This document shows, piece after piece, positions 335 through 48,350 of a stretch of DNA of 64,000 bases. The stretch is from positions 13,905-77,904 of the forward strand of contig JAFDHO010000001.1 in NCBI GenBank assembly GCA_019308745.1, given 5' to 3'. This DNA comes from Deltaproteobacteria bacterium. GTDB lineage: Bacteria > Desulfobacterota > DSM-4660 > Desulfatiglandales > HGW-15. A program made the position numbers and the translations under genes. Each line of letters starts with the position of its first letter. Within the stretch, counting starts at the first letter, position 1. The notes beneath the pieces were generated by a model that had not been told where the DNA came from, ran no database searches, and saw only the letters and a list, made by a program, of their open reading frames with translations.

Positions 335-380
335 TTGACAAGACCCGCGGAAAATAATAGAAGATATCAAACGATCGTTT
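335..380 (+). promoter_or_regulatory. Promoter plus operator copy 1: TTGACA-N17-TAGAAG, then the palindrome AAACGATCGTTT (369-380)
   Basis: Perfect -35 hexamer at 335-340, 17-bp spacer, and a 12-bp perfect palindrome 5 nt after the -10. The same geometry recurs at four other promoters in this window. Confidence 0.6.
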
Positions 381-2293: not shown

Positions 2294-3592
2294 GTGGATC
2301 CGGCTGCAATTGGGCTCATCGGCATCTTTTTCCTCGTTGTCTTCATTTTCGCGGGGGTCCCCGTAGGCGTGACCCTTGCCCTCATCGGGTTCGGCGGTTT
2401 CATCGCCATCCTGGGGCCTGATAGGGCCCTGTCAAACATGGCTCTCATCCCCTTTGAGACCGTTAACCGCTATTCCTTTGCGGTGATACCGCTCTTCCTT
2501 TTGATGAGCACCTTTGTGGGCCGTAGCGGCATCGGCGAAGATGCCTACAGGGCAGCCCGGGCGTGGGTGGGGCACATCAAGGGTGGCCTTGCCATGGCCA
2601 CGGTGGTGGCCTGCGGCCTCTTCGCCGCGACGAGCGGATCAAGCCTGGCCACGGCCGTTGCAATGGGGAAGGTCGCTTACCCTGAGATGAAGAAACTGCG
2701 CTACGACCCCAGGCTGGCCATAGGCTGTATTGCTGCCGGCGGATCCCTGGGATTGCTCATTCCGCCCAGCATGGCCTTTATCCTCATCGGGATACTCACG
2801 GAGGTCTCCATAGGAAAGCTCTTCATGGCCGGTATCATCCCGGGCATCCTGGAGATCGTCTCCTATGCCGTCGCCATTTACATCATGTGCAGGCGGAACC
2901 CTGCCATGGGCCCGGCGGTTGCCCCCGTCTCCATGCTTGGAAGAGTGAAATCCGTCAAAGACACCTGGATGGTGGGTGTCCTGTTCGTGGGGGTCATCGG
3001 CGGGATCTACGGCGGAGTCTTCACACCCACCGAGGCAGGGGGTGTGGGGGCATTCGGTGCTTTGGTCATCGGGCTGATCACGAGACGCCTCAACAGAGAA
3101 GATCTCAAGTTTTGCTTCATGGACACGGCCCGCCACACCGCAATGATCATCGTCATGCTGATCGGTGCCTTCGTCTTCATGCGATTCCTTGCCTATACCA
3201 GAATTCCCAACCTCGCCAGCGAATGGGTGATCTCCCTGAACATGCCACCCATACTCATCGTCATCGTTATTCTCGTCAGTTTCCTATTCTTTGGCATGTT
3301 TTTCGATATGTACGCCGTGGTCATCCTGACGTCCCCTATCCTGTTCCCCATCATGATGGACATGGGATTTGATCCGGTTTGGTGGGGCGTGATCATGTGC
3401 AGGATGATCGAGATCGGGATGGTGACGCCCCCCTTTGGCATAAACCTTTTCGGGCTGGCTGCATCGGCTGAGGTGCCGGTTGGCACCATGTACCAGGGGA
3501 TCATACCCTTTGTTATCGCGGATATATTCGTGGTGGCGGCCCTTGTTGCCTTTCCCATACTTTCAACCTTCATACCATACCACCTGATGTAA
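2294..3592 (+). CDS. dctM: TRAP transporter large permease (DctM family)
   Basis: GTG at 2294 lies 8 nt after AGGAGG, which overlaps the dctQ stop. 432 aa polytopic membrane protein (GVPVGVTLALIGFGGF...). The longer track ORF from 2141 overlaps dctQ and is less likely. Confidence 0.85.
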   Translation: MDPAAIGLIGIFFLVVFIFAGVPVGVTLALIGFGGFIAILGPDRALSNMALIPFETVNRYSFAVIPLFLLMSTFVGRSGIGEDAYRAARAWVGHIKGGLAMATVVACGLFAATSGSSLATAVAMGKVAYPEMKKLRYDPRLAIGCIAAGGSLGLLIPPSMAFILIGILTEVSIGKLFMAGIIPGILEIVSYAVAIYIMCRRNPAMGPAVAPVSMLGRVKSVKDTWMVGVLFVGVIGGIYGGVFTPTEAGGVGAFGALVIGLITRRLNREDLKFCFMDTARHTAMIIVMLIGAFVFMRFLAYTRIPNLASEWVISLNMPPILIVIVILVSFLFFGMFFDMYAVVILTSPILFPIMMDMGFDPVWWGVIMCRMIEIGMVTPPFGINLFGLAASAEVPVGTMYQGIIPFVIADIFVVAALVAFPILSTFIPYHLM

Positions 3593-3614: not shown

Positions 3615-3881
3615 TCAGCCCGCTCTGAGAAAAAGGATTGCGACAGCCGCAGCGATCAGTGCCCCTGGAACCCCAATGAATATCAGGCCCATCCATGCGG
3701 CCCTGGTCTCCATCTCCTTGTAGGAAGCGACGAAATTCTGGCCTGCGAGGGCAAAGAGGGCAAGGGCGCAGGCCCCAAGGGGCCAGGCATACCAGGCAAC
3801 CTCGGTGCCCCCCTGTCGGTCCCACATGAGCAGCCTCATTCCACCCGCCCCGATGAGCAACCCGTACAAAAACCACCACAT
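3615..3881 (-). CDS. rdhB: Reductive dehalogenase membrane anchor protein (RdhB-like, 88 aa, about 3 TM helices)
   Basis: MWWFLYGLLIGAGGMRLLMW... small hydrophobic protein. Its AAAGGAGA RBS overlaps the end of rdhA, giving the classic rdhA-rdhB order. Confidence 0.7.
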   Translation of the reverse strand: MWWFLYGLLIGAGGMRLLMWDRQGGTEVAWYAWPLGACALALFALAGQNFVASYKEMETRAAWMGLIFIGVPGALIAAAVAILFLRAG

Positions 3882-3899
3882 TGCCGTGATATCTCCTTT

Positions 3900-5387
3900 C
3901 TATTCCAACAGGGTCCTTTTCGTGTCGTTGATCCCGTGGGGCGGCATATCCAGCCGCCACCAGGCTTCGAGGTCTCGTTGCCTTTGATATCCGAACACGC
4001 CGTCCATCTTGGTAATAAACCCGTTCACCAGACCCGTAGCGAAGGGGTTTTTCGAGATGGTGGCCTTCACGATCCTATGCATAAAGGACCTGTCCTTCTT
4101 GCTGAAGGGGCAGACGGCAAAACAGGTGGAACACCCCGCCGTCGAAACGGACCACCAGGTCCGGCAAAAAGTAGAGTTCTCATACCACGTCCTGTGCCCG
4201 GGATTGTTCCAGGGCCCTACCGGTTCCCAGAAGGGCTCTGTCTCCAGACTCAATGTCCCCGCAGGGCATTTCTCTGCGCACACCTTGCAGGTCTTACAGA
4301 AACGCAGGATCCCGGCATCGATAGGTTTGGTGGGGGCAAGAGGAAGGTCCGTGACCACCTTGAAGATCCTCTGGAGCGGCCCGTACTCCGGGCTGATCAT
4401 CCTGTTCAGACGGCTCATCTCCCCCAAACCTGCCATGACTCCCAGTGCCGGGGCAATGCCGAGGCCGTTGAACCACATCCCCATGAGCCCCTGGTAGCCC
4501 AGGACATGAAGGAAGGTCTGGAGCCTGTCCATGATGTTTCTGGCCCTCCCATAGGCCGACCCGCTCGCAGAACTTGAAAAGGCAGTGGGTGCCAACCCGG
4601 ATCGCCTTTTGATCAACTCCTCAGACATCTGGAGGGAAAAGACAATCACCCATCGTGCCTTTTCCGGGATTACCCTCTTGTCCTCCGTCTCGTAGGCCTT
4701 GTCAACGCCTTCGAATTCGAGCCGCTTTCCGTCCAGGGCATCCACGGCATATATCAGCTTACGGTGGCGCTCATCGAGCTCCACAAAGCCCACCTGGCTC
4801 GCACCGAAATGCCTGAGGGCTGCCCGTATCATTCTGGAGTTCTCTTCGGGCCTGCCTTCATACCTCGGGATCCCCAGCTCTTCAGGGCTCAGGGGCCTCG
4901 GCCTGGCCGGATCGTGGAGCCTTGAAACGGTCACATCCCTCGTATAGAAGTGCCCCTCCTCCTTTGTCTCGGAGATCGTGTTCGCCCAGGTGCCCAAGAA
5001 GGTAACCGGCACGGAGCCCGACTGTCCGTAAGATATGTCAAGGGCCCGGTCCCTGAGGGTGTATCCCGGCTTGTTATCCAGGATCCACTGTTTGAACTTC
5101 TCCTCCCGTTCCCTGTTGAGTTGCTTTGCCTTTTCCTCACCCACATACCTTCTCCAGGACACCTGCTGGATCTTTGTCGCATCAAACCGCTCCATTCCTT
5201 CCCAATCCACCTCCATGGTCGGCTCATCAACCCAGCTCACCCACCAGGGCCGTCGCCATTCCCCTATGGGAGAAGCCATGACCTCGTCCAGGTCGTGATA
5301 GATCCTGGCCCCGTCCCGTTGATTTCTCTCATCCAGACCCAGGTTCTTCATAGTGGCACGCCCGCTCACTGTGCTGCGCTTCTTCAT
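3900..5387 (-). CDS. rdhA: Reductive dehalogenase homologue (RdhA), corrinoid/Fe-S enzyme
   Basis: N-terminal HDLDEV...RPWWVSWVDEPTMEVDW block typical of RdhA. C-terminal FCKTCKVCAEKCPAG (CxxCxxCxxxCP) and CSTCFAVCPF (CxxCxxxCP) motifs. GGGAGA RBS before ATG at 5387. Confidence 0.85.
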   Translation of the reverse strand: MKKRSTVSGRATMKNLGLDERNQRDGARIYHDLDEVMASPIGEWRRPWWVSWVDEPTMEVDWEGMERFDATKIQQVSWRRYVGEEKAKQLNREREEKFKQWILDNKPGYTLRDRALDISYGQSGSVPVTFLGTWANTISETKEEGHFYTRDVTVSRLHDPARPRPLSPEELGIPRYEGRPEENSRMIRAALRHFGASQVGFVELDERHRKLIYAVDALDGKRLEFEGVDKAYETEDKRVIPEKARWVIVFSLQMSEELIKRRSGLAPTAFSSSASGSAYGRARNIMDRLQTFLHVLGYQGLMGMWFNGLGIAPALGVMAGLGEMSRLNRMISPEYGPLQRIFKVVTDLPLAPTKPIDAGILRFCKTCKVCAEKCPAGTLSLETEPFWEPVGPWNNPGHRTWYENSTFCRTWWSVSTAGCSTCFAVCPFSKKDRSFMHRIVKATISKNPFATGLVNGFITKMDGVFGYQRQRDLEAWWRLDMPPHGINDTKRTLLE

Positions 5388-5477
5388 GATTCTCCCTCAG
5401 CCTCAGAGGTCTTGTGCAAAAGTGCGAAATCTGGTAATTGTTTCAAAAGCTTCCTGAAAAAAGGAGAAACACATTTT

Positions 5478-5521
5478 AATGATCGTTTGTTCCTGATAGC
5501 ATTAACATCCGTTGCTGTCAA
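5478..5521 (-). promoter_or_regulatory. Promoter plus operator copy 2 (minus strand): TTGACA-N17-TATCAG-gaac-AAACGATCATT, upstream of rdhA
   Basis: The reverse complement of 5478-5521 reads TTGACAgcaacggatgttaatgcTATCAGgaacAAACGATCATT. The geometry matches the other four copies. Confidence 0.55.
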
Positions 5522-5701: not shown

Positions 5702-5745
5702 TTGACAGGATTCCGGGTGGACTATAGAATTTCTAATCGATCGTT
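5702..5745 (+). promoter_or_regulatory. Promoter plus operator copy 3: TTGACA-N17-TAGAAT-ttct-AATCGATCGTT
   Basis: TTGACA at 5702-5707, TAGAAT at 5725-5730, palindrome at 5735-5745. Lies 30 nt upstream of the TTG start at 5776. Confidence 0.6.
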
Positions 5746-5775
5746 CAGTAAATATTTTCCGGCGGTGGAGGTACA

Positions 5776-6549
5776 TTGAATCTGACGACGCTGACATACG
5801 AGAAGAAGGATCGAATCGCGTTCATCTCTCTGGCCAAGAGGATCGAGGAGGCCGGGTTGGCCCTTACCTTTGCGACGGAACTTTCCGAGGTGTGCTCGGA
5901 CATCCAGGCCGACAAGGACATAGGGGCAACCCTGCTATTCTGTGAGGAGAAGGATGCCCTCTCAATGGACGGCCATGTGCTGAGAGAGTGGCCGTGGCAA
6001 TTGGAAGGTGGCGAGGAAGGGCCGGTTTCCCTGGCCGAACCCGTGGCGAGACTGGAACAGCCCGTGGTCGCGGGAATACCGGGAGATGCCGTAGGTCCCG
6101 GCCTTGAACTGGCCCTGACCTGTGACTTGAGAATTGGGTCTCGGGGCTCCGGTTTTGGACTCCCCCATGTCAGATACGGTCTTATGCCCTGGGATGGAGG
6201 CATCCAGAGGCTTTCAAGGTTGATAGGGAAAGGCAAGGCCATGGAGATGATTCTCACCGCTCAAAGGATAGAGGCACAGGAGGCTTACAGGATCGGCCTG
6301 TTGAACCGGGTGGCCTCTGAGAATGAACTCAAAGACCTGGCCCTCAATATGGTGACTGAAATGGCTTCAAAGGCCCCCCTGTCCATGGCCTATGCCAAAG
6401 AAGCCGTCAACAAGGGCATGGATTTGACCCTTGAGCAAGGATTGCGCCTTGAGGCGGATCTCTACTTCTTGATACAGACGTCGCAGGATCGCACTGAAGG
6501 CATCAAGGCCTTCCAGGAAAAGAGGGCGCCCCATTTCAGGGGAAGGTAG
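5776..6549 (+). CDS. Crotonase-superfamily protein, divergent N-terminal half
   Basis: TTG start after GGTGGAGG. The C-terminal two thirds is crotonase-like (GPGLELALTCDLRIGS, EGIKAFQEKRAPHFRG). The usual NRPxxxNA and FCAGADL blocks are not recognisable. Confidence 0.7.
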   Translation: MNLTTLTYEKKDRIAFISLAKRIEEAGLALTFATELSEVCSDIQADKDIGATLLFCEEKDALSMDGHVLREWPWQLEGGEEGPVSLAEPVARLEQPVVAGIPGDAVGPGLELALTCDLRIGSRGSGFGLPHVRYGLMPWDGGIQRLSRLIGKGKAMEMILTAQRIEAQEAYRIGLLNRVASENELKDLALNMVTEMASKAPLSMAYAKEAVNKGMDLTLEQGLRLEADLYFLIQTSQDRTEGIKAFQEKRAPHFRGR

Positions 6550-6564: not shown

Positions 6565-7335
6565 ATGGACAACGCATTCAAGACCTTGATCTACGAAAAG
6601 ACGGAAGAGGGCATTGCCTACGTCACCCTGAATCGCCCCGGGGCATTGAACGCCTACAACATCCAGATGAGAGACGACCTCTACGAGGTCCTCAGGGCCA
6701 TAAGGGATGACGATGAAGTCAGGGCCGTCATATTCAAGGGTTCTGGAGAAAAGGCGTTCTGTGCGGGCGCAGACCTGGAGGAATTCCTGACCGCCCCCTC
6801 CCCCACTGTTGCGCGCCGGGTACGATTTGATCGGGATGTCTGGGGGTTGTTCCTGAGTCTTCCTCAACCCCTGATTGCAGCCTTACACGGGTACGTCCTG
6901 GGCTCGGGCATTGAAATGGCGCTGTGTTGTGACATACGAATTGCCTCTGATGATTCCAAGTTCGGCCTGCCGGAGATGGGCCTAGGTATCATACCCGCGG
7001 CAGGGGGGACCCAGACCCTTCCCCGCACCATAGGGCGCTCGAGGGCCATGGAGATGCTCCTCACCAATAGGTGGATCAGTGGGGAAGAGGCATATCTCTT
7101 CCAGTTGGTCAACAGGGTCGTTCCCAGGGACCAGCTTCTTCCCACTGCAAGGGATATGGCGAGGAGGATTGCGTCCCAAGACCCGAAGGCCGTGAGGTTT
7201 GCCAAGGAGGCCGTGAACAGGGGCCTCGACCTGTCCTTGTCTGAAGGGCTGCGTTTGGAAAGGGCCCTGTTCTTGCGGTTGACAAGGGGTCGTAACCAGG
7301 AGGGTACGGATCACAGAACAACAAGGGAGGCGTGA
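6565..7335 (+). CDS. Enoyl-CoA hydratase/isomerase family protein
   Basis: VTLNRPGALNAYN, FKGSGEKAFCAGADLEEF and GYVLGSGIEMALCCDIRIAS are canonical crotonase motifs. Confidence 0.85.
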   Translation: MDNAFKTLIYEKTEEGIAYVTLNRPGALNAYNIQMRDDLYEVLRAIRDDDEVRAVIFKGSGEKAFCAGADLEEFLTAPSPTVARRVRFDRDVWGLFLSLPQPLIAALHGYVLGSGIEMALCCDIRIASDDSKFGLPEMGLGIIPAAGGTQTLPRTIGRSRAMEMLLTNRWISGEEAYLFQLVNRVVPRDQLLPTARDMARRIASQDPKAVRFAKEAVNRGLDLSLSEGLRLERALFLRLTRGRNQEGTDHRTTREA

Positions 7336-11098: not shown

Positions 11099-11142
11099 TT
11101 GACAACAAGTGGCGGTGGAAATAGCATTATCAAACGATCGTT
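11099..11142 (+). promoter_or_regulatory. Promoter plus operator copy 4: TTGACA-N17-TAGCAT-tatc-AAACGATCGTT
   Basis: TTGACA at 11099-11104, TAGCAT at 11122-11127, palindrome at 11132-11142. Confidence 0.6.
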
Positions 11143-11299
11143 AGGTCATGTCTTGTTGGGTTCCTCACTAGAATCCGTGGGCTGAAAACTACCTGATGCT
11201 CGCCCTCAAGAGGGTTGGGATGTCTTTTCGGAGTGACTGCTGGGAGGCGCCTGAGGCGCTTTGGGAATTGTAAGTTCTTTTTGAAGCTTGGAGGGAGCA

Positions 11300-15969: not shown

Positions 15970-16014
15970 TTGACAACATATCGCCGCGCCAATAATATGA
16001 ACAAACGATCGTTT
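15970..16014 (+). promoter_or_regulatory. Promoter plus operator copy 5: TTGACA-N17-TAATAT-gaac-AAACGATCGTTT
   Basis: TTGACA at 15970-15975, TAATAT at 15993-15998, perfect 12-bp palindrome at 16003-16014. Lies 15 nt before ATG 16029. Confidence 0.65.
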
Positions 16015-16028
16015 AGCATCTTTGCGGG

Positions 16029-18389
16029 ATGAACGGAACCATGAAGACAGAACCCGGAATAAACAGACTCCTGGAACCCTTTGAAGTCCTGGACCTGACA
16101 GATGAAAAGGGAAGTTTCTGTCCCTACATCCTGAGTCACCTGGGGGCCTCTGTCACTCGCTTGGAGAGCAGGGAACCCAAGAGGGATTTCTGGTGGTGGG
16201 CCTATGACAGTCAAAAGAAGAGGCTCGAGGTCGATATTGAAAGAGAACAGGACAAGGCCCTCTCACTTGTGAGAAGGGCGGATTTTCTGGTTGAGTCTTT
16301 TCCTCCCGGGCATATGGACAGAATTGGCCTGGGATATTCTGCCTTGAAGGAACTCAATCCCCGACTCATCTACACCTCCATTACCCCTTACGGACAAACA
16401 GGCCCCTACAAGGACTATAAGGCCTCTGATCTTGAGATCATGGCCATGTCTGGCGTCATGTATGTCCTCGGGGATCCGGATCGCCCTCCCGTGAGAATCA
16501 GTTTCCCCCAGTCCTATCTCTTGACTTCGGCGATAGCCGCCGTGGGGACCCTGATTGCCCACCATTGGAGGGAGACGACCGGTCAGGGGCAACATGTGGA
16601 TGTCTCCGCTCAGGAAAGCCTTTATGATGTGCTCATGCAGGCCCCCTATTATTACAAATGGTTTGGAAACGACCCCGCCAGGACCGGGCCCTATAGACTT
16701 GGTGTCTCTGGCGGAATCTTTCTCCACCCCATGATCTGGAAATGCCGGGACGGGCACGTCGCGTACATGATGCAGGGCGGAAAGCTGGGGGCCTATTCAA
16801 ACAGCACCCTGGCGAGGTACATCGAGGAGGAAGGGATCCTGCCGGATCATGTCCGCCAGATCCGGTGGGAAGAACTGGACATGGCCCAGATGACCCAGGA
16901 GAAGATGGAGGAGATCTGGAAGCCCTTTGCCGATTTTTTTTTACGCCACACCGTTGAGGAAATCTACCGGATTGCCCTAAAGGAGCGCATTCAGCTCTTC
17001 CCCGTGAATACGGTCAGGGACATCATCCATGACGAGCAGCTCGAGGCCCGCGAGTACTGGGTTTTCAAGGACATCCGTGAGCTTGGAAAGGAGCTCAAGT
17101 TCCCGGGCCGCCTGGCTAAGTTATCATTTCCTGATCAAGGGGGTGAGAGCGGGGAAAGAGCCGGCCCCAATGAAAGCCCTGAAAGACCCCCCTTTGAAGG
17201 CCTCAAGATTGCTGATTTTTCATGGGTCGCAGCCGGTCCTTGGGTCACCACGTGGCTGGAAGGTTATGGCGCCGAGGTCGTCAAGGTTGAATCCATAAAC
17301 CGTCTGGACGCGACCCGGGTCTCGGGACCTTACTTGGACAACAGGCCCGGCCCCGATCGTTCGGGGATGTTTCTTGTGTTCAACGGAGCGAAAAAGAGCC
17401 TTACCCTCAATCTCAATACTCCGGGCGGAAGAGAAATCGCACGCAAATTGGTCAAGTGGGCGGATGTGGTGGTTGAGAGCTTTGCCCCGGGACAGATGCG
17501 CAGATGGGGTTTGAACTACGAGGAGCTTTGCAAGTTAAACCCCAAGCTCATCATGCTGAGCGCATCCATGATGGGTGCGACAGGACCCCACGCGGAACAG
17601 CCCGGGCTGGGACTCCAGTTAACCTCCCTTGCGGGGTTTACCTACCTGACCGGATGGCCCGATAGGGACCCCCCTTATATATGGGGCGCCTACACGGACA
17701 TTCCTGCCTCCAGAATAGGGGCCAGTGCCCTTCTGGCGGTCCTTGATTACTACCGACGGAGCGGAAAGCCATGCTATATCGACCTTTCCCAGTATGAGGC
17801 CAGCCTCCATTTCCTTTCGCCCCTGATCCTTGAATTCCAGGCAACCGGTAATCCAGGCAACAGGATGGGAAACCGTTCCCCTATTGCATCTCCCCACGGC
17901 GTATTCCCCTGCAAGGGAAAGGACCGATGGTGCGCAATATCCGTGTTTAGCGAAGAGGAGTGGCAGGCCCTTTGCCAGGCCATGGGCACACCGGAAACGG
18001 CGACAAACACCCTCTTTTCGACCTTCGAGAAGAGGAAAGAGAATGAAGATGCCCTTGAAGATCTTATTGCATCGTGGACAAGGGGACGTCCGCCTGAGGA
18101 TGTAATGACCCTTCTTCAAGATGCCGGAGTCAACGCCGGTGTCGTGAAGACCAGTGGAGATCTCTTTGCTGATCCCCAGTTTAAACACCGGCGCCACTTC
18201 ATCCCCGTGTCCCATCCTGAAGTGGGAGATTACGAGTACTTCTGTCCCGGTTTCAGGCTGGCCAAGGTCCCTATTAGGGCCGGGAGGGCCCCGTGCCTGG
18301 GAGAACACAACGAATACGTGTGCACCAAGATACTCGGACTGACCGACGATGAGTTTATCGAATATCTCACGTCCGGGGCCCTGGAGTAG
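16029..18389 (+). CDS. Tandem-fused double family-III CoA-transferase (786 aa)
   Basis: Two complete signatures. The first is FEVLDLTDEKGSFCPYILSHLGASVTRLES at the N-terminus. The second is LKIADFSWVAAGPWVTTWLEGYGAEVVKVES near nt 17200. They are joined by a Pro/Glu/Gly-rich linker (DQGGESGERAGPNESPERPP). Confidence 0.8.
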   Translation: MNGTMKTEPGINRLLEPFEVLDLTDEKGSFCPYILSHLGASVTRLESREPKRDFWWWAYDSQKKRLEVDIEREQDKALSLVRRADFLVESFPPGHMDRIGLGYSALKELNPRLIYTSITPYGQTGPYKDYKASDLEIMAMSGVMYVLGDPDRPPVRISFPQSYLLTSAIAAVGTLIAHHWRETTGQGQHVDVSAQESLYDVLMQAPYYYKWFGNDPARTGPYRLGVSGGIFLHPMIWKCRDGHVAYMMQGGKLGAYSNSTLARYIEEEGILPDHVRQIRWEELDMAQMTQEKMEEIWKPFADFFLRHTVEEIYRIALKERIQLFPVNTVRDIIHDEQLEAREYWVFKDIRELGKELKFPGRLAKLSFPDQGGESGERAGPNESPERPPFEGLKIADFSWVAAGPWVTTWLEGYGAEVVKVESINRLDATRVSGPYLDNRPGPDRSGMFLVFNGAKKSLTLNLNTPGGREIARKLVKWADVVVESFAPGQMRRWGLNYEELCKLNPKLIMLSASMMGATGPHAEQPGLGLQLTSLAGFTYLTGWPDRDPPYIWGAYTDIPASRIGASALLAVLDYYRRSGKPCYIDLSQYEASLHFLSPLILEFQATGNPGNRMGNRSPIASPHGVFPCKGKDRWCAISVFSEEEWQALCQAMGTPETATNTLFSTFEKRKENEDALEDLIASWTRGRPPEDVMTLLQDAGVNAGVVKTSGDLFADPQFKHRRHFIPVSHPEVGDYEYFCPGFRLAKVPIRAGRAPCLGEHNEYVCTKILGLTDDEFIEYLTSGALE

Positions 18390-18579
18390 TAAAGGCCCTG
18401 GGAAAGGGATAGGTGCAAGCACGCAGGAGAATGGAAGTAGTGGAATACTGGAAAACCCATCCCGCCATTCCACGTTCCCCATTGAGTCAAGGGACAAAGG
18501 CCACGATCATGGGCGTTTTACAGGTATTCACCGGCTTTATTGAAAGAACAGCATTATCGTTTGGAAATAGGAAAAGGAG

Positions 18580-20097
18580 ATGAAGACGATGGAAAAGGAT
18601 ATTTCCAGTATGCGCAGTTCCCTGGAGTTCTTAAAGGCAGAAGGCGACGTCATGGAAATCAAAGAGGAAGCGGATCCGATCCTCGAGATCTCAGCGATCA
18701 CCAAGTCTTTCGATGGAGGCCCGGTCCTTCTCTTTGATAAGGTGAAAGGCTACCCCGGCGTGAGGGACGTGTCCAATGTCATGGCCAACGAGAGTATCTA
18801 CCCGAAACTTTTTGATGCATCAAATGACAAAGAGATGATGCGTCGTGCCCACCACGCCTTGCTCAATCCCATTCCTCCCAGGGTGGTTGAAGAGGCGCCC
18901 GCGCAAGAGGTGGTGATCAAGGAGGATATCGACGTCTTCAGCACCTTGCCCATTCTGCTTCATACGGAAGAGGATGCCGGAAGGATCCTGGGTGGCCTCA
19001 ATGTCCTCATTTCCGGCAAGTACTTCGATGGCGGGCATGAGATATCCTTCAAACGGACCCACTTCCAGGATCGGGATTGGGGAACCATCATGGCGGGCGA
19101 TTCAACCCACATCGGAAAGATAATCAAGAGGTTCAGGCCAGAACCCATACCGGTGACCCTCAATCTCTGCACGCCGCCGGCGGTTCTCCTGGCTGCCGGA
19201 GGGACCTATCTCCACGCCATGATTCCCTTTGGATCCGATGAACTGGGTTTTGCAGGAGGCCTCCAGGGATATCCCGTGGATATCGTCAAGGCCAAGACGG
19301 TCGATGCCTATGCCGTTGCCCAGGCCGAGTGGGTGGTGGAGGGATACATCGAGACGGCCCCTACCCATTGGGAGAGTGAAAAGGCCGCCCAGGCAGGCAA
19401 GTGGGAGGTTGCCCCGTTCTTCCCCGAGTATACCGGCTACCTTGGTGGCTCCGTCAAGACAAGCGGCTTCAAGGTTACTGCCATCACGCACAGGGAGGAC
19501 CGTCCGATCTTCTACTCTCCCCTTGCCCACTCCTTCGAAGGAGAGAACCTGATGCGTCCCTTCCGTGCAGCGTCCATGTATGAGTGGGCCCGCCGGATCA
19601 CGGATCCCGCATTCATTGCCGACGTCAACGTACTCCAGGGGCAAAAGGGACTCCTCGGGGTTGTTTTCCAGGTGAGCAAGTCCAAACCCAGGTTCGAGGG
19701 ATACCAAAAGACGCTCCTGTACAATATCCTGACCCTCCCCGAGGCGCCTCAGGTCGGTATTGCGGTCGATGAAGATGTGGACATCTATTGCGCCGAGGAC
19801 GTCATCTGGGCCATGACCACGAGGGTCAACCCGGAAACCGGGATTGTCAGGGGCTGGGGTGACAGGCACAGGCAGGGGAATCCCATGGAAGACCTCTCCC
19901 AAATAAGCGGCCTCCAGGGGTTTTACGGCATAGACGCCACAGTCCCCTTTGATCACCCGTTGAAAATGGTCTTCAGGCAGGGGAAATACCCCGTGGATAA
20001 GATTGACCTAAAGAAGTGGTTCACAGAAGAGCAGATCCATGCAGCCAGGAGTCGCCAGTGTGAATATGCCAAGGTTATCGCAAAACGAGGTTCCTGA
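18580..20097 (+). CDS. UbiD-family (prenyl-FMN dependent) decarboxylase
   Basis: 505 aa. The N-terminus MRSSLEFLKAEGDVMEIKEEADPILEISAI...VLLFDKVKGYPG is typical of UbiD-like carboxy-lyases. Confidence 0.8.
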   Translation: MKTMEKDISSMRSSLEFLKAEGDVMEIKEEADPILEISAITKSFDGGPVLLFDKVKGYPGVRDVSNVMANESIYPKLFDASNDKEMMRRAHHALLNPIPPRVVEEAPAQEVVIKEDIDVFSTLPILLHTEEDAGRILGGLNVLISGKYFDGGHEISFKRTHFQDRDWGTIMAGDSTHIGKIIKRFRPEPIPVTLNLCTPPAVLLAAGGTYLHAMIPFGSDELGFAGGLQGYPVDIVKAKTVDAYAVAQAEWVVEGYIETAPTHWESEKAAQAGKWEVAPFFPEYTGYLGGSVKTSGFKVTAITHREDRPIFYSPLAHSFEGENLMRPFRAASMYEWARRITDPAFIADVNVLQGQKGLLGVVFQVSKSKPRFEGYQKTLLYNILTLPEAPQVGIAVDEDVDIYCAEDVIWAMTTRVNPETGIVRGWGDRHRQGNPMEDLSQISGLQGFYGIDATVPFDHPLKMVFRQGKYPVDKIDLKKWFTEEQIHAARSRQCEYAKVIAKRGS

Positions 20098-20503: not shown

Positions 20504-22393
20504 ATGCAAAAACAGAAGATTGGTTACGTTGACCTGTCCACGGGCGAAATCCAAACGAGGGAGATTCCTGAAATCATGCGCAGAAAATTCCTCGGGGGCC
20601 GGGGTATTGATATGTACTTACTCTACAACCATGTCAAGCCGGGATGCGATCCTCTGGGACCTGACAACGTATTCGTAGCCAGCGCAGGGCTCCTCAGTGG
20701 GACCCTTGCGCCTTCCTGCTCCCGATTTCACGTGGGTGCCAAGTCTCCCCTCACCGGATTCATAGGCAGCGCCAACAGCGGAGGGTATTTCGCCCCAGAG
20801 CTCAGGTTTGCCGGGTTCGACCATATCCTCGTCAGGGGAAAGGCCAAGAACCCCGTCTATCTCTTCGTAAATGATGGCACCATTGAGATCCGAGATGCCT
20901 CCCAGATCTGGGGACACGACACCATCGAGACCCAGGAGCTGATCAAGGAGGACCTCAATGACCAGCAGGTGAAGTCCATCTGTATTGGTCAGGCGGGAGA
21001 GAATCTTGTGCGATTCGCCAACGTCAGGACCGGCCAGAAGAATGCGGCAGGAAGGACGGGCATTGGCGCAGTCATGGGATCCAAGAACCTCAAGGCGATA
21101 GCTGCCCGCGGGACCCTCGGGGTTGAAATCGCACACCCGGATGAGGCGTTCGAGGTCTACGAAAAGATGCTCCAGGTTGTCCTGAGAAGTAAGGCCACCC
21201 GTGCCATTCAAGAATACGGGACCATGGTCACCTTCAACACCTCCAATACCTCGGGTCAAATAAGGGTAAAGAACTTCATGACCAACACCCTGGAGGACTC
21301 GGAACAGCTGGAACCCGAATACTTCTACGAAAACTATACCATAGGAATGGCAGGGTGCTTCGGGTGCCCCATCCACTGCCGCCACAAGTACATTGTGCCG
21401 GAAGGCCCCACTGCGGGCACTTACACGGAGGGCCCTGAGTACACCACCCTTGGCGCCTTCGGCACCGAGCTCTACTGCAAGCGAATCGAGACGGTCCTCA
21501 GGGGGAACCATCTCGCCAACATGTATGGATTCGACACCCTGGAGTTCGGCAGCATGGTCGCGTGGGCCATGGAACTCTATGACAGAGGGTTCATCGATGA
21601 CAAAGTGACCGGGGGTCTCAAGCTGGAATGGGGCGACGAGGATGCCATATTTGAACTGGTGGACCAGGTCACATTCAGACGGGGCTTCGGAGACATCCTT
21701 GCAGAAGGACCCAAAAGGGCCATTGAAAAGCTCGGGGATGAGACCGCCTATTATAACATCAATATCAAGGGCATGAGCAATTTGCACTCCGATGAGAGGG
21801 CTATCCCCTCCTTTGCTTTGGGGATCGGAACGGCCACTAGGGGTTCTGACCACCTGAGGAACCGTCCCGTCACCGATCTCTTCAATCTTCCCAAGAAAGT
21901 GTTGAAAGATCATTATGGTTTTGATGTGGTCAATGACTATTCTGCCTACGAAACAAAGGGCAAGGTCATATGGTGGCATGAGACCTACAACCCGATCACG
22001 GACTCCGTAGGCATATGCAGGATTGCCACGATCACCTTTAGCCTTAACAGGCTCAATTTCAAGGAATATAGCGAACTCATCCGCGTCATGACAGGTATGG
22101 AATTCACGCCCGAGGAATTGCAGCAGATCGGGGAGAGGATCTATACCACCGAGCGTCTGTTCAACATTCGAGAAGGAGCGACGAGGAAGGACGATTATCC
22201 CTCCGAGCGCTATTTCAAGGAACCAACTCCCGCTGGGCTGCCGAAGAATCGGGGCAAGACTATCGACCGGAAGAAATACGACATGATGCTGGACGAGAAC
22301 TACGCAATGCATGGCTGGGACAAGAGGGGAGTGCCCAAGAAAGAAACCCTCCAGAAACTGGGGCTGGACAAAGAGCCTTCTCACATCATCTGA
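20504..22393 (+). CDS. Tungsten-pterin aldehyde:ferredoxin oxidoreductase (AOR family)
   Basis: IGYVDLSTGEIQTREIP...FLGGRGIDMYLLY N-terminus, CFGCPIHC [4Fe-4S] motif, 629 aa. Confidence 0.9.
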   Translation: MQKQKIGYVDLSTGEIQTREIPEIMRRKFLGGRGIDMYLLYNHVKPGCDPLGPDNVFVASAGLLSGTLAPSCSRFHVGAKSPLTGFIGSANSGGYFAPELRFAGFDHILVRGKAKNPVYLFVNDGTIEIRDASQIWGHDTIETQELIKEDLNDQQVKSICIGQAGENLVRFANVRTGQKNAAGRTGIGAVMGSKNLKAIAARGTLGVEIAHPDEAFEVYEKMLQVVLRSKATRAIQEYGTMVTFNTSNTSGQIRVKNFMTNTLEDSEQLEPEYFYENYTIGMAGCFGCPIHCRHKYIVPEGPTAGTYTEGPEYTTLGAFGTELYCKRIETVLRGNHLANMYGFDTLEFGSMVAWAMELYDRGFIDDKVTGGLKLEWGDEDAIFELVDQVTFRRGFGDILAEGPKRAIEKLGDETAYYNINIKGMSNLHSDERAIPSFALGIGTATRGSDHLRNRPVTDLFNLPKKVLKDHYGFDVVNDYSAYETKGKVIWWHETYNPITDSVGICRIATITFSLNRLNFKEYSELIRVMTGMEFTPEELQQIGERIYTTERLFNIREGATRKDDYPSERYFKEPTPAGLPKNRGKTIDRKKYDMMLDENYAMHGWDKRGVPKKETLQKLGLDKEPSHII

Positions 22394-23007: not shown

Positions 23008-23135
23008 GAGAAGCCAGAATCCAGAAGCCAGGAACCAGAAGAACCTTGATGTCCCTTTGCTTCCGCATATTCATCATACTGGGCTGAGCGTTGGCGAAAA
23101 CATTATTATTCTGGATTCTGACTCCTGGATTCTTC
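23008..23135. repeat. Low-complexity palindromic intergenic element, family copy 1
   Basis: CAGAATCCAGAA (23015-23026) is the exact reverse complement of TTCTGGATTCTG (23109-23120). It shares AGAAGCCAGAAT and the 18-mer TTCTGGATTCTGACTCCT with the element at 61041-61146. Confidence 0.8.
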
Positions 23136-26235: not shown

Positions 26236-26265
26236 GTCGTAGTGGGCCGCAGGGGGTTCCGCGGA

Positions 26266-28869
26266 ATGGATGTGATCTCAAAGGGTAGTGTTAAGGAGGA
26301 TAGGTGGCTCCGGACCATATGCACGGGATGTTATGCCCACTGCGCTGTCAGGGTCCATCGCATTGATGGAGTCGTGGTCAAAGTGGAGGGGGATCCTGAA
26401 TCCGTGAAGGGGGCCAAGGGCGGGGTGTGCGCCAAGTCCTCCTACATGATTCAAATGCTCTATCACCCCAAGAGGTTCAAGTACCCCGTGAGACGAACCA
26501 ATCCCAGGAAGGGGGTTGGCACGGATCCGGGATGGAAACGCATAACCTGGGATGAGGCCCTTGAGGAGATCACGGGGCGGCTCCTTAAGCTGAGAGATGC
26601 CGGCGAGACCTGGAAGATGCTCACTATTGGAGGTGTCGGCGCCCTCCCCCTGACATCGCCTCTTTTGGGCCAAACAGGCTGGAGGAACCTCTTCGGTTCC
26701 ATTAGCGGGGGGGCAGGACACTCTGTCCATTGCGGACAGGCCTCTCATCTTGGCGCAGGCATGAACCACTGCGCCTGGTCCGTGACACCGGACTTCAAAT
26801 ACTGCAACTATGCCATACACTTCGGGGCGAACAAGGGACTGGGGAGTGGCCATTCTGCAGCGATGTTGATGAGCCTCTCCGCGGAAGCACGGGCACGAGG
26901 TATGAAGGTCATTGCCTTTGACCCAATGTGCCACTTTGCAGGGGGTAAGGCCGATGAATGGTTGCCCCTTATTCCCGGCACGGACGGCATTATTGCCCTT
27001 GCTATGGCCAACGTTATCGTCAATGAATTGGGCGTCTACGATGTCGACCATCTGAAAACGAAGACCAACGCCCCTTACCTTGTCCTGCCTGACGGGCGCT
27101 ATGTGCGTGATGATACGGGCGAACCCATGATATGGGATTCCCCGGACCGTGTGCCCAAGGCGTGGAAGGATTCTTCAATAAAGGACCCTGCCCTCGAGGG
27201 TTCCTTTCAAGTCAATGGCCTAAAGTGCCGAACTGTGTTCTCTATGGTCAAAGAACACCTCACCCAGTATACCCCGGGCCAGGCTGAAGGAATCAGCACT
27301 GTCCCCGCATCGACCATAAAGCGCATTGCCACCGAGTTTGCTGAGAATGCCCGCATAGGCAGCACCATTGAGATCGAAGGGATAAGGTTTCCCTACAGAC
27401 CGGTTGCCGCCTTCATGTTCCGAGGGGGCCAGGGCCATACCAACGGCTTCCACAATTATCAGTCCGTGGACTTCCTGAACCAGCTCGTGGGGGCAGCCGA
27501 TGTGCCCGGCGGCGCCCTCGGGTGGCCCGCCAGAAGCCTGGGCTATCCGGGCACAGGCACGACTGCCTTTGAACCTGTAGCGAGTAAGGACGGTTTTCTC
27601 TTTTCCACCGCCTGGATGCCCATGCACGGCACGTGGCCGCACCCGGAGCCCAAGGAACCCGGGGACCCGGCCCTTTATGACATTTTCACGGCAGCCCCTC
27701 CCATGTCTACCATGCCTCTCAAATCGGACGCCCCCGAGATATGGAAGAAGTTTGGTTTTCCGGATGAACCCTTCGAATTCCTCCTGACCTTCTGGTCAAA
27801 TGCCGCCATGACCGCGGCGAACTTCGAGGTGTGGGAAAAGAGGTTCAAGAACCTGTATACCGTCTGTTCTGCTGCCGTGCCCACCGAGACAACCGAGTGG
27901 TTCGGGGATATCGTCCTTCCTGACGTGGTCGGCCTCGAGCTCGACAATTTTGTGCCTGGCGAGGCATACGTATTCAGTTACCCTATCGGCATGCTGGACT
28001 GGGAATACCATCCCATGCTCAGGATTGTGGAACCCGAGTACGAAAGAAGGTTCATCGGCGACACCTGCCTGGAACTCTGGGATAGACTCGACCTTCGTGA
28101 CAGGTATATGGACGTCATTGCCAGGTGGCTTGGCAGAACCGCCTGCCCCCGCCCTTGGCAGGCAGGTGAAAAACTCTCGTGGGATGAAATGACCGACAGG
28201 GTCTTGCGGGCGCGATTCGGGGATGAGCATGATCTCGAGTGGTTCCGCGATAACGGCTTCATGCGCTGGAAAAAGAGACCCGAGGAGGCTTACTGGCGAT
28301 GGCAGATCAATGCCAGGGCATCCATCTATCATGAGTGGCTGGTGGACCAGGGCGTAAAGGTGAAGAACATCTGCCAGCCCCGGGGCTACGAGCTGGATTG
28401 GAAACAGTATGTCCCTCTTATCAGCTATTTCCCGGCCGCCTCTCACCAAGCCAAGAGCGGCGATTTTGACCTGTTTGCATTCGGCTACAGGGATATATTG
28501 CACAACGCGTCCACGACCCAAGAAATCCCGTGGCTCTTTGAAGTGAGCGAGATGAATCCCTTCACCTTCAACGTGGTCATGAACAGCGAAACTGCCCGGG
28601 AAAAAGGCATTGAAGACATGGATGAGGCTTACCTGGAGAACGAGGCAGGCCAGAGAATCAAGGTGAAAATCCATACCACGGAGGGCATACATCCCCGTTG
28701 CATTGCCATGGCCCACGGCAGTTGTCACTGGCTTAAAGGGCATCCGGCGGAAGGAAAGTCCGGCCTCCTCAACGCCCTTTTCATGGTCGAGGACAAGTAC
28801 TTCTGTCCCATCTCCCAATCAATTGAAACGTCCGTGAGGGTGAAGGTATACAAGGGGGTGCATAGATAA
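26266..28869 (+). CDS. Cytoplasmic molybdo/tungstopterin oxidoreductase catalytic subunit (DMSO-reductase family), paralogue 1
   Basis: N-terminal CTGCYAHC...GGVCAK Fe-S motif with no twin-arginine signal. About 870 aa. ATG at 26266 (GTG at 26242 is an alternative). Confidence 0.8.
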   Translation: MDVISKGSVKEDRWLRTICTGCYAHCAVRVHRIDGVVVKVEGDPESVKGAKGGVCAKSSYMIQMLYHPKRFKYPVRRTNPRKGVGTDPGWKRITWDEALEEITGRLLKLRDAGETWKMLTIGGVGALPLTSPLLGQTGWRNLFGSISGGAGHSVHCGQASHLGAGMNHCAWSVTPDFKYCNYAIHFGANKGLGSGHSAAMLMSLSAEARARGMKVIAFDPMCHFAGGKADEWLPLIPGTDGIIALAMANVIVNELGVYDVDHLKTKTNAPYLVLPDGRYVRDDTGEPMIWDSPDRVPKAWKDSSIKDPALEGSFQVNGLKCRTVFSMVKEHLTQYTPGQAEGISTVPASTIKRIATEFAENARIGSTIEIEGIRFPYRPVAAFMFRGGQGHTNGFHNYQSVDFLNQLVGAADVPGGALGWPARSLGYPGTGTTAFEPVASKDGFLFSTAWMPMHGTWPHPEPKEPGDPALYDIFTAAPPMSTMPLKSDAPEIWKKFGFPDEPFEFLLTFWSNAAMTAANFEVWEKRFKNLYTVCSAAVPTETTEWFGDIVLPDVVGLELDNFVPGEAYVFSYPIGMLDWEYHPMLRIVEPEYERRFIGDTCLELWDRLDLRDRYMDVIARWLGRTACPRPWQAGEKLSWDEMTDRVLRARFGDEHDLEWFRDNGFMRWKKRPEEAYWRWQINARASIYHEWLVDQGVKVKNICQPRGYELDWKQYVPLISYFPAASHQAKSGDFDLFAFGYRDILHNASTTQEIPWLFEVSEMNPFTFNVVMNSETAREKGIEDMDEAYLENEAGQRIKVKIHTTEGIHPRCIAMAHGSCHWLKGHPAEGKSGLLNALFMVEDKYFCPISQSIETSVRVKVYKGVHR

Positions 28870-29513
28870 TGAGATGGGGCATGGTGATAGATCTCAAGAA
28901 ATGCGTCGGCTGCTATTCCTGCACCGTGTCCTGTAAGGAGGAGCACTTTTTGCCACCGGGCATTTTCTGGAACAGGGTTCTGATTGCCCACAAGGGGAAA
29001 TACCCGGTGGTTACCAAGGAGATTCTTCCGGTCCTCTGCAACCATTGCAAAGAAGCGGCATGCGTGGAGGTATGCCCCACCGGGGCCAGCCACAAGAGGG
29101 AGGACGGAATCGTGCTCGTGGATTCGGACATGTGCGTGGGTTGCAAGGCCTGTATCGTTGCCTGTCCTTACCAGCACAGGAGTTTTTTCAAGTCCTATAT
29201 GCCCTATTTTAAAGACAGCGGCTATACCCCGCCCGAGGAACTGGGCATGCGTCTTCAGCCTCTCCCAGAGGGCACTGCCGTGAAGTGCACCTTTTGCGTC
29301 GAAAAAATAGAGGATGGAATGAGCAAGGGCCTGATGCCGGGAGATGCCTTTGAGGCAACTCCCGCCTGCGTGACTGCCTGCCCAACCAACGCAAGGGTAT
29401 TCGGAGATATTGATGATCCCGAAAGTGAGGTATCCAACCTGATAAGGGCCAGAAAAGGAGTCCCATTCCACCCCGAGTTTGAAACGGAACCATCCGTATT
29501 CTACATAGAGTGA
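28869..29513 (+). CDS. Four-cluster Fe-S subunit (DmsB/PsrB type)
   Basis: TAATG overlap with the upstream gene. Contains CVGCYSCTVSC, CNHCKEAACVEVCP, CVGCKACIVACP and CTFC...ACVTACP. Confidence 0.85.
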   Translation: MRWGMVIDLKKCVGCYSCTVSCKEEHFLPPGIFWNRVLIAHKGKYPVVTKEILPVLCNHCKEAACVEVCPTGASHKREDGIVLVDSDMCVGCKACIVACPYQHRSFFKSYMPYFKDSGYTPPEELGMRLQPLPEGTAVKCTFCVEKIEDGMSKGLMPGDAFEATPACVTACPTNARVFGDIDDPESEVSNLIRARKGVPFHPEFETEPSVFYIE

Positions 29514-29578
29514 CCTCTTTGGCTCTGGATCCCAAGGACAGGCGCCCAAGAGCCTTTTGATCATGGAGGATAGCGAAT

Positions 29579-46557: not shown

Positions 46558-46812
46558 TTATGTAGTAAGGCGACCGCATCGCCGTCCAGAGCGTAACACG
46601 GTTACCTCGTTCCAAAAGCAAAGGAAGGCCGATCACCTTAAGGTAGACGAGAGCCCGGATCCGAATCCCGCCTTGAGAAACTCCTTCCGACATGCCATAA
46701 TGAAATCATTTCAAGTAGTATGGATGACTCAGGGGAAGCTGCCCATGTCTTCACGGTTTCAAGATATCGTCTTTATCGTAAACCCAAACGCCGCAATGGG
46801 CTCTGTTAGACG

Positions 46813-46836
46813 GGGACGTTGATTTGTAAGTAAGTA
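46813..46836 (+). repeat. Solo copy (22/24 match) of the 24-bp terminal repeat GGGACGTTGATTTGTAATTCAGTA
   Basis: GGGACGTTGATTTGTAAGTAAGTA, in the same orientation as the copy at 48077-48100. Confidence 0.75.
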
Positions 46837-46905
46837 TCTTGGCCCCTCAACCCGGCTCGCCTTTATGCTTCTCCCTAGAGAGACTGAATCAAGACCGAAC
46901 ATCCA

Positions 46906-47355
46906 TCACGATTTCTTTCCTGTCATGCTTTCCACATCAAGTCTCAGGACATTAGTCTTTCTCAAAATATCTTCATCGTAGGAATAGGACCCTTTTGCCC
47001 CATAGTGAGCCATGATCACGTCAAGGCCCTTCCGCCTTTCTTCCGGGTCTTGAACAATACTTATTCTCCCATACCCGATGACGCTTTGGTACTTCACGCC
47101 CCATTTACAGGCCGCATCCGCTTTCTTCACTTCCACGTCAATATCCATCTCAAAGCAGGCCCTCGGATTCTTTTCCAGGATCTCAAGCTTTCTACCCTTT
47201 AGGCCCGTATGGAAATATAGGGTGTTGTCTTTGTAGCCAAAGCACAGGGGCACCACATAAGGATATCCTTCGGCAAGCATGGCGACTCTGCACACCAGGG
47301 CCCGCGAAATGATGGCTTCGATTTCCGCCTGATCCCTTATCTCCTTTCTTGTCAT
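46906..47355 (-). CDS. Pyridoxamine 5'-phosphate oxidase-like FMN-binding protein
   Basis: AIISRALVCRVAMLAEGYPYVVPLCFGYKDNTLYFHTGLKGRKLEIL resembles the split-barrel PNPOx/NimA-like family. Confidence 0.7.
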   Translation of the reverse strand: MTRKEIRDQAEIEAIISRALVCRVAMLAEGYPYVVPLCFGYKDNTLYFHTGLKGRKLEILEKNPRACFEMDIDVEVKKADAACKWGVKYQSVIGYGRISIVQDPEERRKGLDVIMAHYGAKGSYSYDEDILRKTNVLRLDVESMTGKKS

Positions 47356-48076: not shown

Positions 48077-48350
48077 GGGACGTTGATTTGTAATTCAGTA
48101 ACTACTCCGGCATCACGGCCTATCCTTTTGATGGCCTCCCACTACTTCCCATTACTAATACCACATTAGTTCATTCCTACCGTTTAATCAATCTCTTGTT
48201 GCCCAGATCCACAAGCTGCCGGTAACCTGCTCATAGAAAACCTTGATCGGTGGTGTATCAGTCTCCGACCCGCACATACATGAGGATAGACAGAGTCCCT
48301 GCAAGCCATCATGCCCCATGCCGAAATACTGAATTACAAATCAACGTCCC
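48077..48350. mobile_element. 274-bp MITE-like element with perfect 24-bp terminal inverted repeats and no ORF
   Basis: GGGACGTTGATTTGTAATTCAGTA at 48077-48100, with its exact reverse complement at 48327-48350. The 226-bp interior is AT-richer and non-coding. Confidence 0.75.

Follow-up and report, generated by a model that had tools for sequence, protein, structure and literature searches.

A reductive dehalogenase gene pair with a remnant twin-arginine signal and an RdhB anchor of altered charge, possibly facing the cytoplasm

Reductive dehalogenases are sorted into three classes: exported enzymes that are anchored by the small membrane protein RdhB and conserve energy, enzymes fused to their membrane segment, and soluble catabolic enzymes. 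The exported class includes PceA2B2 of Desulfitobacterium hafniense TCE1 (8Q4H) and the VcrAB and TceAB pairs. In the PceA2B2 structure solved by cryo-electron microscopy, the N-terminus of PceB and its Glu-x-Glu (ExE) loop, between the second and third transmembrane helices (TM2 and TM3), lie on the membrane's P side in contact with PceA, and it is the C-terminus of PceA that the ExE loop binds (PMC10624902). The present report concerns an rdhA-rdhB gene pair of this type in a window of 64,000 nucleotides (nt), the whole stretch of DNA that was analysed, from contig JAFDHO010000001.1 of a Deltaproteobacteria bacterium. The catalytic subunit, RdhA, begins with the remnant of a twin-arginine translocation (Tat) signal, and its anchor, RdhB, belongs to a clade in which the charges that orient the protein in the membrane have changed; sequence comparison suggests that both partners have been altered in a way fitting a complex that faces the cytoplasm.

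RdhAs lacking a Tat signal are not new in themselves. Those without rdhB are well documented (PMC4959651), and for hybrid RdhAs fused to transmembrane helices a cytoplasm-facing catalytic domain has been proposed (Atashgahi 2019, PMC6797604). The combination found in the window, no Tat signal together with rdhB, is also on record, its localisation being left unexplained: in the Smkt1 cluster of Kawai et al. 2014 the Tat motif is present in 0 of 12 genes and an adjacent rdhB in one, with localisation left open (PMC3939436), and in the deltaproteobacterial set of Liu and Haggblom 2018 a Tat signal accompanies 16 of 35 genes for the reductive dehalogenase A subunit and a B subunit gene accompanies 26 of 35 (PMC6299228). 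A 2025 cold-seep survey distinguishes prototypical, transmembrane, cytosolic and "novel" classes, and a class without Tat but with rdhB is not among them. Such genes, counted in surveys since 2014, have so far been a puzzle: an enzyme that stays inside the cell has no access to the anchor loop on which it should dock, as that loop faces outward. In the full-text literature searched, nothing was found on RdhB topology, the positive-inside rule or remnant signals in dehalogenases; what appears to be new here is thus the analysis of the signal remnant and of the change in RdhB charge distribution, the combination itself being already known.

The rdhA gene (3900..5387, minus strand) opens behind a ribosome-binding site, GAGGGAG, placed before the ATG, ends with a TAG stop at 3900-3902, both read directly from the sequence, and encodes a catalytic subunit of 495 residues. 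Against TIGR02486 this protein reaches 279 bits, where the cut-off is 160, and against PF13486 94.6 bits (cut-off 24.3; E 8e-27), and its only Pfam domains over the 495 residues are Dehalogenase and Fer4. Two 4Fe-4S motifs are present, CxxCxxCxxxCP as CKTCKVCAEKCP at residues 364-375 and CxxCxxxCP as CSTCFAVCP at residues 419-427; their cysteines are invariant in an alignment of 100 sequences, as are Y279 and R340, which align with the catalytic Y246 and R305 of Sulfurospirillum multivorans PceA. H437 aligns with the PceA residue that contacts menaquinone, H495 (447 in the chain numbering, offset by 48), and this histidine is thus kept. An AlphaFold2 model built on the 100-sequence alignment (predicted local distance difference test score, pLDDT, 87; predicted template-modelling score, pTM, 0.87) was used in place of a poor one from a 27-sequence alignment (pLDDT 52), which was discarded. 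Its best fold match in the PDB is S. multivorans PceA (4UR3, E 7e-26, target-normalised template-modelling score (TM-score) of about 0.73), and it also matches the PceA chain of the PceA2B2 complex (8Q4H_A, E 5e-23) and the catabolic NpRdhA (E 3e-18). At the level of sequence, PceA is matched at E 4e-38 as against E 5e-17 for NpRdhA, the latter match covering residues 248-477 only. The model thus supports a PceA-like fold, and RdhA is predicted to be a corrinoid- and Fe-S-dependent enzyme of the respiratory type. The epoxyqueuosine reductase QueG, which the first-pass annotation of this DNA had raised as the alternative identity, was rejected: TIGR00276 gives 33.4 bits where its cut-off requires 200, and the fold is nearer PceA than QueG (E 1.5e-6, query-normalised TM-score 0.32).

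The anchor gene rdhB (3615..3881, minus strand) lies 18 nt downstream of rdhA, its putative ribosome-binding site AAGGAG (3893..3898, minus strand) directly after the rdhA TAG as read from the sequence, and 22 nt separate its end from the dctM stop, the two genes being arranged tail-to-tail. It encodes an 88-residue membrane anchor of the VcrB family, for which PF27193 ("VcrB") is a precomputed match on the exact sequence of the window protein, and three hydropathy peaks agree with three helices. A profile search with RdhB returned 122 proteins at E <=0.001, and all 120 of those listed carry PF27193, under names such as "reductive dehalogenase anchoring protein" (Dehalogenimonas lykanthroporepellens) and "dehalogenase" (Dehalococcoides mccartyi). 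Searched singly against the PDB by phmmer, the window RdhB found no match; a profile of 30 RdhB sequences has as its top match PceB (8q4h_C), in register but at a marginal E of 0.068, and in this marginal alignment E56-x-E58 of the TM2-TM3 loop falls on the SEREY segment of PceB. Both glutamates are at least 90% conserved. Between the window and its orthologue on contig L162 (fetched loci are given by L numbers), RdhB shows 84% amino-acid identity and a ratio of non-synonymous to synonymous substitution (dN/dS) of 0.056, which rises to 0.1-0.25 against more distant clade members; by this measure rdhB is under purifying selection and is a real gene, in keeping with the earlier view that the anchor gene had been retained. 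As judged by profiles, motifs and gene order, the identification of rdhAB as a genuine reductive dehalogenase pair, which the first-pass annotation had proposed for these two open reading frames (ORFs), is firm.

In most of its features the pair resembles PceA2B2, VcrAB and TceAB: it shares with them the RdhA fold, the two 4Fe-4S motifs, the Tyr/Arg pair and the histidine corresponding to PceA H495, as well as a VcrB-family rdhB directly downstream, coding for three helices and an ExE loop, and the start of its RdhA shows homology to the Dehalococcoidia Tat signal. Unlike these systems, however, the window RdhA has neither the twin arginine nor the hydrophobic core (h-region) of a signal, and the window RdhB has neither a lysine- and arginine-rich (K/R-rich) loop between TM1 and TM2 nor a K/R-rich C-terminal tail.

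In the fetched loci, RdhAs of the Dehalococcoidia type canonically start as MxKYHSTxSRRDFMKALGLGGAGLGAAAxxAPxFHDLDEV, and the N-terminus of the window RdhA, MKKRSTVSGRATMKNLGLDERNQRDGARIYHDLDEV, matches this signal column by column. Codons 1-31 of rdhA (5295..5387, minus strand) encode what alignment with canonical signals identifies as a remnant, MKKRSTVSGRATMKNLGLDERNQRDGARIYH, in which the amino-terminal n-region is preserved along with the frame of the consensus box, the twin arginine is replaced by G9-R10, the invariant phenylalanine of the box by threonine, and the uncharged h-region of about 15 residues by a charged linker, DERNQRDGAR. The highest hydropathy over any 11 residues within positions 1-45 is 0.26, whereas canonical signals average 1.63, and no hydrophobic segment is found within these 45 residues. 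The earlier description of a decayed signal, with RR turned into GR and the h-region into charged residues, is therefore accurate by alignment as well as by hydropathy. Nor can a different start restore the signal, since ORFs were listed from the first start after a stop and the 495-residue ORF is already the longest reading possible. A genuine Tat signal was looked for elsewhere in the window as a within-genome control, and none was found. The Tat signal of RdhA is likely to be non-functional, and the protein likely not to be exported.

The remnant, hereafter the stump, is not peculiar to this genome. A protein search with RdhA returns about 95 clusters at 53-99% identity, and essentially all of those with an N-terminus carry the same stump; at least 63 stump-bearing protein clusters come from metagenome-assembled genomes (MAGs) of Desulfobacterota, Rhodospirillaceae and Chloroflexota, the hosts being, by named sources and fetched loci, Desulfatiglandales, other Deltaproteobacteria, marine Rhodospirillaceae and Chloroflexota MAGs. 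Matches at 50% identity or below mostly have full RRDFL[KR] signals, and a few have a related stump. Among 63 full-length members of the clade, T6 is conserved in 100%, G17 in 95%, S5 in 90%, L18 in 87% and M13 in 78%; the two columns of the former twin arginine hold K, N or R followed by R or K, and the linker is hypervariable and missing altogether in about 40% of members. A neighbour-joining tree of RdhA, from which the N-terminal region was excluded, places the clade inside Tat-bearing, rdhB-linked RdhAs of the Dehalococcoidia type. The first-pass annotation had seen in this RdhA a decaying intermediate between respiratory and catabolic enzymes; this does not hold, as the protein sits in a large and stable clade sharing one stump, and of the two affinities it had in mind, nesting among respiratory Dehalococcoidia-type enzymes is found and closeness to the catabolic NpRdhA and BhbA is not.

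Within this clade about two thirds of loci keep rdhB; it follows rdhA directly in the window and some 20 other loci. About ten loci lack it although their sequence extends far enough to show it, and these are scattered beside rdhB-positive sisters, such as L088 beside L089 and L094 beside L093. In these two cases the RdhA loci are near-identical and the presence of rdhB is their sole difference; the 147 nt between rdhA and the next gene in L088 point to a clean and recent deletion of the anchor gene. A second stump-bearing clade of RdhAs, from Dehalococcoidales, lies beside relatives with both Tat signal and rdhB (L126, L129) and has no rdhB. It comprises L017, L018, L020, L023-L028, L032, L033, L038, L039 and L109-L148, and shows graded decay of the signal, from the full RR and h-region in L126, through a KK with the h-region kept in L018, to RdhAs of 442 residues that start MKHHTKYRDLDE and have lost the box entirely; rdhB is missing from every member.

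A precedent for a retained but non-exporting signal is found in membrane-bound nitrate reductase: according to Ize et al. 2009, as cited in PMC10609526, NarG keeps a remnant Tat signal that is bound by the chaperone NarJ. Like NarG, the window RdhA would be a cytoplasm-facing redox enzyme of respiratory type with a non-exporting N-terminal Tat vestige and exported relatives; unlike it, RdhA belongs to an unrelated enzyme family, and NarG is anchored through the haems of NarI and not by an inverted small anchor. By analogy with NarG and NarJ, the conserved stump could serve as a chaperone-binding tag. In the clade neighbourhoods, where a chaperone was one of the partners sought, none of the 25 families listed as most frequent is a trigger-factor-like chaperone.

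By the positive-inside rule, K/R-rich segments of membrane proteins are cytoplasmic, and the pattern of canonical RdhBs fits an N-out/C-in orientation. A K+R bias was defined on aligned RdhBs as the lysines and arginines of the TM1-TM2 loop and C-tail minus those of the N-terminus and the TM2-TM3 ExE loop, and was compared between RdhBs adjoining an RdhA, 40 of them paired with a true Tat signal and 40 from the clade of the window. The bias ranges from +2 to +12 (mean +5.5) in the Tat-paired anchors and from -4 to +1 (mean -1.2) in the clade, with no overlap between the two (Mann-Whitney p 9e-15, U = n1*n2, a statistic that ignores shared ancestry). By segment, mean K/R counts are 3.58 against 0.07 in the C-tail, 3.17 against 1.02 in the TM1-TM2 loop and, in the opposite sense, 1.15 against 2.10 in the ExE loop. 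The RdhBs of the clade, including that of the window, end at TM3, the K/R-rich C-terminal tail being gone. At the start of TM2 (the column of window residue 32), WYEW has become WY[A/V]W throughout the clade, a glutamate having been lost along with the K/R clusters. A separate sample of 120 RdhB homologues likewise gives a bimodal bias, its 29 low-bias proteins being without exception members of the window clade. Within the clade, the RdhBs of Rhodospirillaceae and Chloroflexota are the clearer cases, with -2 to -3. Loss of the K/R clusters predicts a reverse orientation or no fixed orientation for these proteins, and an inverted or dual topology of the clade RdhB can be given roughly even odds or somewhat less. 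The earlier statement that the anchor is kept is thus right for the gene; the protein is not merely kept, its topology-determining charges having changed clade-wide.

The catabolic enzymes NpRdhA of Nitratireductor pacificus and BhbA of Comamonas sp. 7D-2 provide a second comparison. Like them, the window RdhA has no Tat signal and stands in a catabolic context, and their substrates are aromatic acids, as is inferred for the window enzyme. As with BhbA, the solute-receptor gene of a tripartite transporter adjoins the dehalogenase gene, although not in the form given in the first-pass annotation: a periplasmic receptor is indeed encoded directly upstream of bhbA on pBHB (L163, NC_021077.1 39663-54070), but it is annotated as a substrate-binding protein of the tripartite tricarboxylate transporter (TTT) type and not of the tripartite ATP-independent periplasmic (TRAP) type. 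NAD(P) transhydrogenase genes lie downstream of bhbA on the same plasmid. Unlike NpRdhA and BhbA, which measure about 700-1000 residues and have no RdhB, the 495-residue window RdhA has an RdhB and possesses neither a fused C-terminal NAD(P)H reductase domain nor an extra N-terminal domain of the vestigial cobalamin-binding kind. The hybrid RdhAs (PMC6797604; Jochum et al. 2018) share with the window pair the lack of Tat, membrane attachment and a predicted cytoplasmic catalytic domain, and they too occur in Desulfatiglans-related Deltaproteobacteria (PMC6797604). Their anchor is fused and rdhB is absent, in contrast to the separate RdhB with altered charges in the window, and the hybrid RdhAs of L022, L029, L030, L035 and L036 fall in a different branch of the tree. 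These hybrid proteins have about 570 residues with N-terminal transmembrane helices, and in L022, L035 and L036, where the sequence reaches far enough, a Tat-type rdhA-rdhB pair follows in the same orientation some 2 kb downstream.

The window pair differs from the respiratory pairs in its regulation too: rdhAB appears to be controlled together with uptake and coenzyme A (CoA) pathway genes and not with typical rdh accessory or regulator genes. Palindromes resembling AAACGATCGTTT occur seven times in the window as against 1.34 expected in the pattern search, and five operator copies are in register within the arrangement CTTGACA-N17-TAnnnn-N4-AAACGATCGTT. They stand before dctP (369-380, plus strand); in the rdhAB promoter, as the half-palindrome AAACGATCATTA (5477..5488, minus strand); before a pair of enoyl-CoA hydratase (ECH) genes (5735-5746, plus strand); before a gene for an acetyl-CoA hydrolase/transferase (11132-11143); and before genes for a fused family-III CoA-transferase and a UbiD enzyme (16003-16014). 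The predicted rdhAB promoter (5493..5521, minus strand) consists by consensus match of a -35 element TTGACA at 5516-5521, a 17-nt spacer and a -10 element TATCAG at 5493-5498; the divergent promoter of the ECH operon (5702..5746 together with its operator AATCGATCGTTC, plus strand) matches the promoter consensus at 11 of 12 positions and precedes the two hydratase genes (5776-6549 and 6565-7335, plus strand; Pfam ECH_1). On the orthologous contig L162, where RdhA is 89% identical, the order ECH-ECH, rdhA-rdhB, dctMQP is kept, as is the operator, including an identical copy of the rdhA-specific variant AAACGATCATTA upstream of rdhA. The shared operator noted in the first reading is thus borne out, and rdhAB probably belongs to one regulon with the TRAP transporter, the hydratases, the CoA-transferases and UbiD. 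A regulator for the operator was sought among 20 further ORFs of the window, with no candidate, and no regulator gene was identified in the window.

The transporter is a complete DctPQM system of the TRAP type, with PF03480, PF04290 and PF06808 all far above their cut-offs: dctP (549-1586, Pfam DctP), dctQ (about 1761-2288, Pfam DctQ) and dctM (about 2294-3592, Pfam DctM) are on the plus strand, so that dctM converges on rdhB, their lengths following the gene calls on the identical contig, and DctP begins with a hydrophobic, signal-like segment. The fused two-domain family-III CoA-transferase (786 residues) and the UbiD enzyme that follows (16029-20097) resemble the anaerobic phthalate pathway, and the UbiD protein has phthaloyl-CoA decarboxylase as its best solved relative (8OZ5; full-length match, E 4e-82). 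An AOR-family gene comes after UbiD, at 20504-22393. Elsewhere in the clade, where a transporter, chaperone or electron donor shared by the loci was looked for, the neighbourhoods are heterogeneous: 104 neighbouring ORFs include seven for ABC transporters, six for molybdopterin oxidoreductases, three for AOR proteins and two for DctM.

These elements can be assembled into a model in which a non-exported RdhAB of respiratory type, with RdhA docked on RdhB, removes halogen from an imported aromatic carboxylate on the cytoplasmic side of the membrane, a model with about as much chance of being right as of being wrong. With its signal dead, RdhA would be retained in the cytoplasm, where it would fold and receive its cofactors with the stump still attached. 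Homology to PceAB and the conservation of H437 suggest that it would bind RdhB at the ExE-loop face, and a non-exported RdhA bound to that face demands that RdhB present it to the cytoplasm; the anchor would accordingly insert reversed or both ways, with the ExE loop toward the cytoplasm. Electrons would be taken up at the inner face of the membrane, menaquinol being the most likely donor, and since oxidation of quinol at that face frees protons inside the cell, the step would build no proton-motive force (per PMC10624902). The co-regulated TRAP transporter would import a halogenated aromatic carboxylate or dicarboxylate, from which the halogen would be removed reductively, and the product would pass to CoA transfer, a UbiD-type decarboxylation like that of phthaloyl-CoA, and the hydratases; a halogenated organic or aromatic acid is a plausible substrate class. 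The wider proposal, that two coupled changes, deletion of the Tat h-region and an RdhB made inverted or dual by loss of its positive-inside charges, have shifted the whole clade from the membrane's outer face to its inner one, with the stump turned into a docking tag for cofactor-insertion chaperones, is offered tentatively, as one somewhat more apt to fail than to hold.

Several observations weigh against this model. The anchor gene has been lost repeatedly inside the clade (L001/L081, L088, L094, L096, L009, L071, L101), which implies that it is dispensable in some lineages. The last 65 residues of RdhA, the region that contacts RdhB and quinone in PceA, are the same in members with and without rdhB, so that this comparison has no discriminating power. 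The stump changes faster than the rest of the protein, being only about 55% identical between the window and L162 over residues 1-31, as against 89% for the whole of RdhA. The bias of the window RdhB itself is +1 (R15, R22 and R86 versus K55 and R60), so that by charge this particular protein has lost the canonical pattern and yet is not clearly inverted. No second lineage combining Tat loss, rdhB and low bias is found among 160 loci or 120 RdhB homologues; the low-bias RdhBs group without exception in a single clade, and their association with Tat loss therefore goes back to one evolutionary event. TRAP adjacency is confined to the window and L162, and with DctM in only two of 104 neighbouring ORFs the TRAP link is specific to this lineage; the TRAP neighbour noted at first, with dctM tail-to-tail with rdhB, therefore stands for the window and not as a property of the clade. 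Finally, the clade is known from sequence alone.

Part of this evidence would suit a soluble cytoplasmic RdhA that draws its electrons from a ferredoxin or flavoprotein, RdhB being a relic, or re-recruited and no longer its partner. The clean losses of rdhB in several sub-lineages with no change in the RdhA C-terminus, and the Dehalococcoidales sister clade with the same kind of stump and no rdhB at all, point in that direction, and the loss of K/R determinants could mean relaxed constraint; relaxation, however, would scatter these residues, yet the C-tail count is uniformly near zero and that of the ExE loop has gone up. Purifying selection on rdhB is moreover strong (dN/dS 0.06-0.25), clade members from three phyla share the conserved ExE loop, WYxW motif and helix pattern, and the translational coupling of rdhA and rdhB is kept, with its 18-nt gap and ribosome-binding site. 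A soluble enzyme with a disused anchor is considered unlikely.

The window RdhA could also use the dehalogenase fold for another reaction, for example a corrinoid-dependent reduction of an aromatic acid within the neighbouring pathway. None of the neighbouring genes is specific for halogens, some databases label relatives as "epoxyqueuosine reductase", and the clade is, once again, one of predicted proteins; but a TIGR02486 score far above cut-off beside the 33 bits out of 200 for QueG, the invariant catalytic Tyr/Arg pair of PceA and a fold much nearer PceA than QueG argue in favour of dehalogenation, and to our knowledge no enzymes other than dehalogenases have an RdhB partner, which renders this alternative improbable. 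That RdhA is still exported in the classical, periplasm-facing arrangement, by riding on another Tat substrate or through a KR or GR stump that still works, is very improbable: a missing Tat motif is not a strict exclusion of Tat targeting (Kawai et al. 2014, PMC3939436), and the consensus-box residues S5, T6, M13, G17 and L18 are conserved and RdhB retained, but the stump has no hydrophobic core, the h-region being deleted outright in about 40% of clade members, the window RdhA has G-R for R-R and has lost the conserved phenylalanine, no candidate partner bearing a Tat signal lies beside rdhAB in the window or L162, and the loss of canonical RdhB topology determinants would be unexpected if the canonical arrangement were in use.

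Beyond the genes discussed so far, the window contains two paralogous genes for molybdopterin oxidoreductases (875 and 871 residues, with stretches of about 70% identical DNA) at 26242-32194, between which lies a gene for a 4Fe-4S protein (28869-29513). An ORF at 47352-48053 is bracketed by an inverted repeat whose 24-nt arms match perfectly (48077-48100 and 48327-48350, the second arm within 48320-48351) and by a related 32-nt arm (46812-46843); these may be a palindrome with a regulatory role or mark where a mobile element ends. Tandem 14-nt units resembling AGAAGCCAGAATCC occur between genes at 23009-23045 and 61035-61071, with an inverted copy at 61115-61137.

Substrate prediction is notoriously poor for reductive dehalogenases, and in this respect the shared operator is of use, as it ties RdhA to an uptake system and a pathway of the phthaloyl-CoA type and thereby narrows the candidate substrates. 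For the family as a whole, the clade-wide loss of the charges that orient RdhB offers a concrete and testable answer to the puzzle posed by RdhAs that lack a Tat signal but keep rdhB. It also bears on how rdhA genes in MAGs from marine sediments and the ocean are to be read, whether as organohalide respiration or as intracellular dehalogenation that conserves no energy. If the model of a cytoplasm-facing complex is true, this RdhB would be the first small respiratory anchor to have been flipped to follow its catalytic subunit, and the cytoplasm-facing, RdhB-anchored enzymes of this clade would constitute a fourth architectural class of RdhA.

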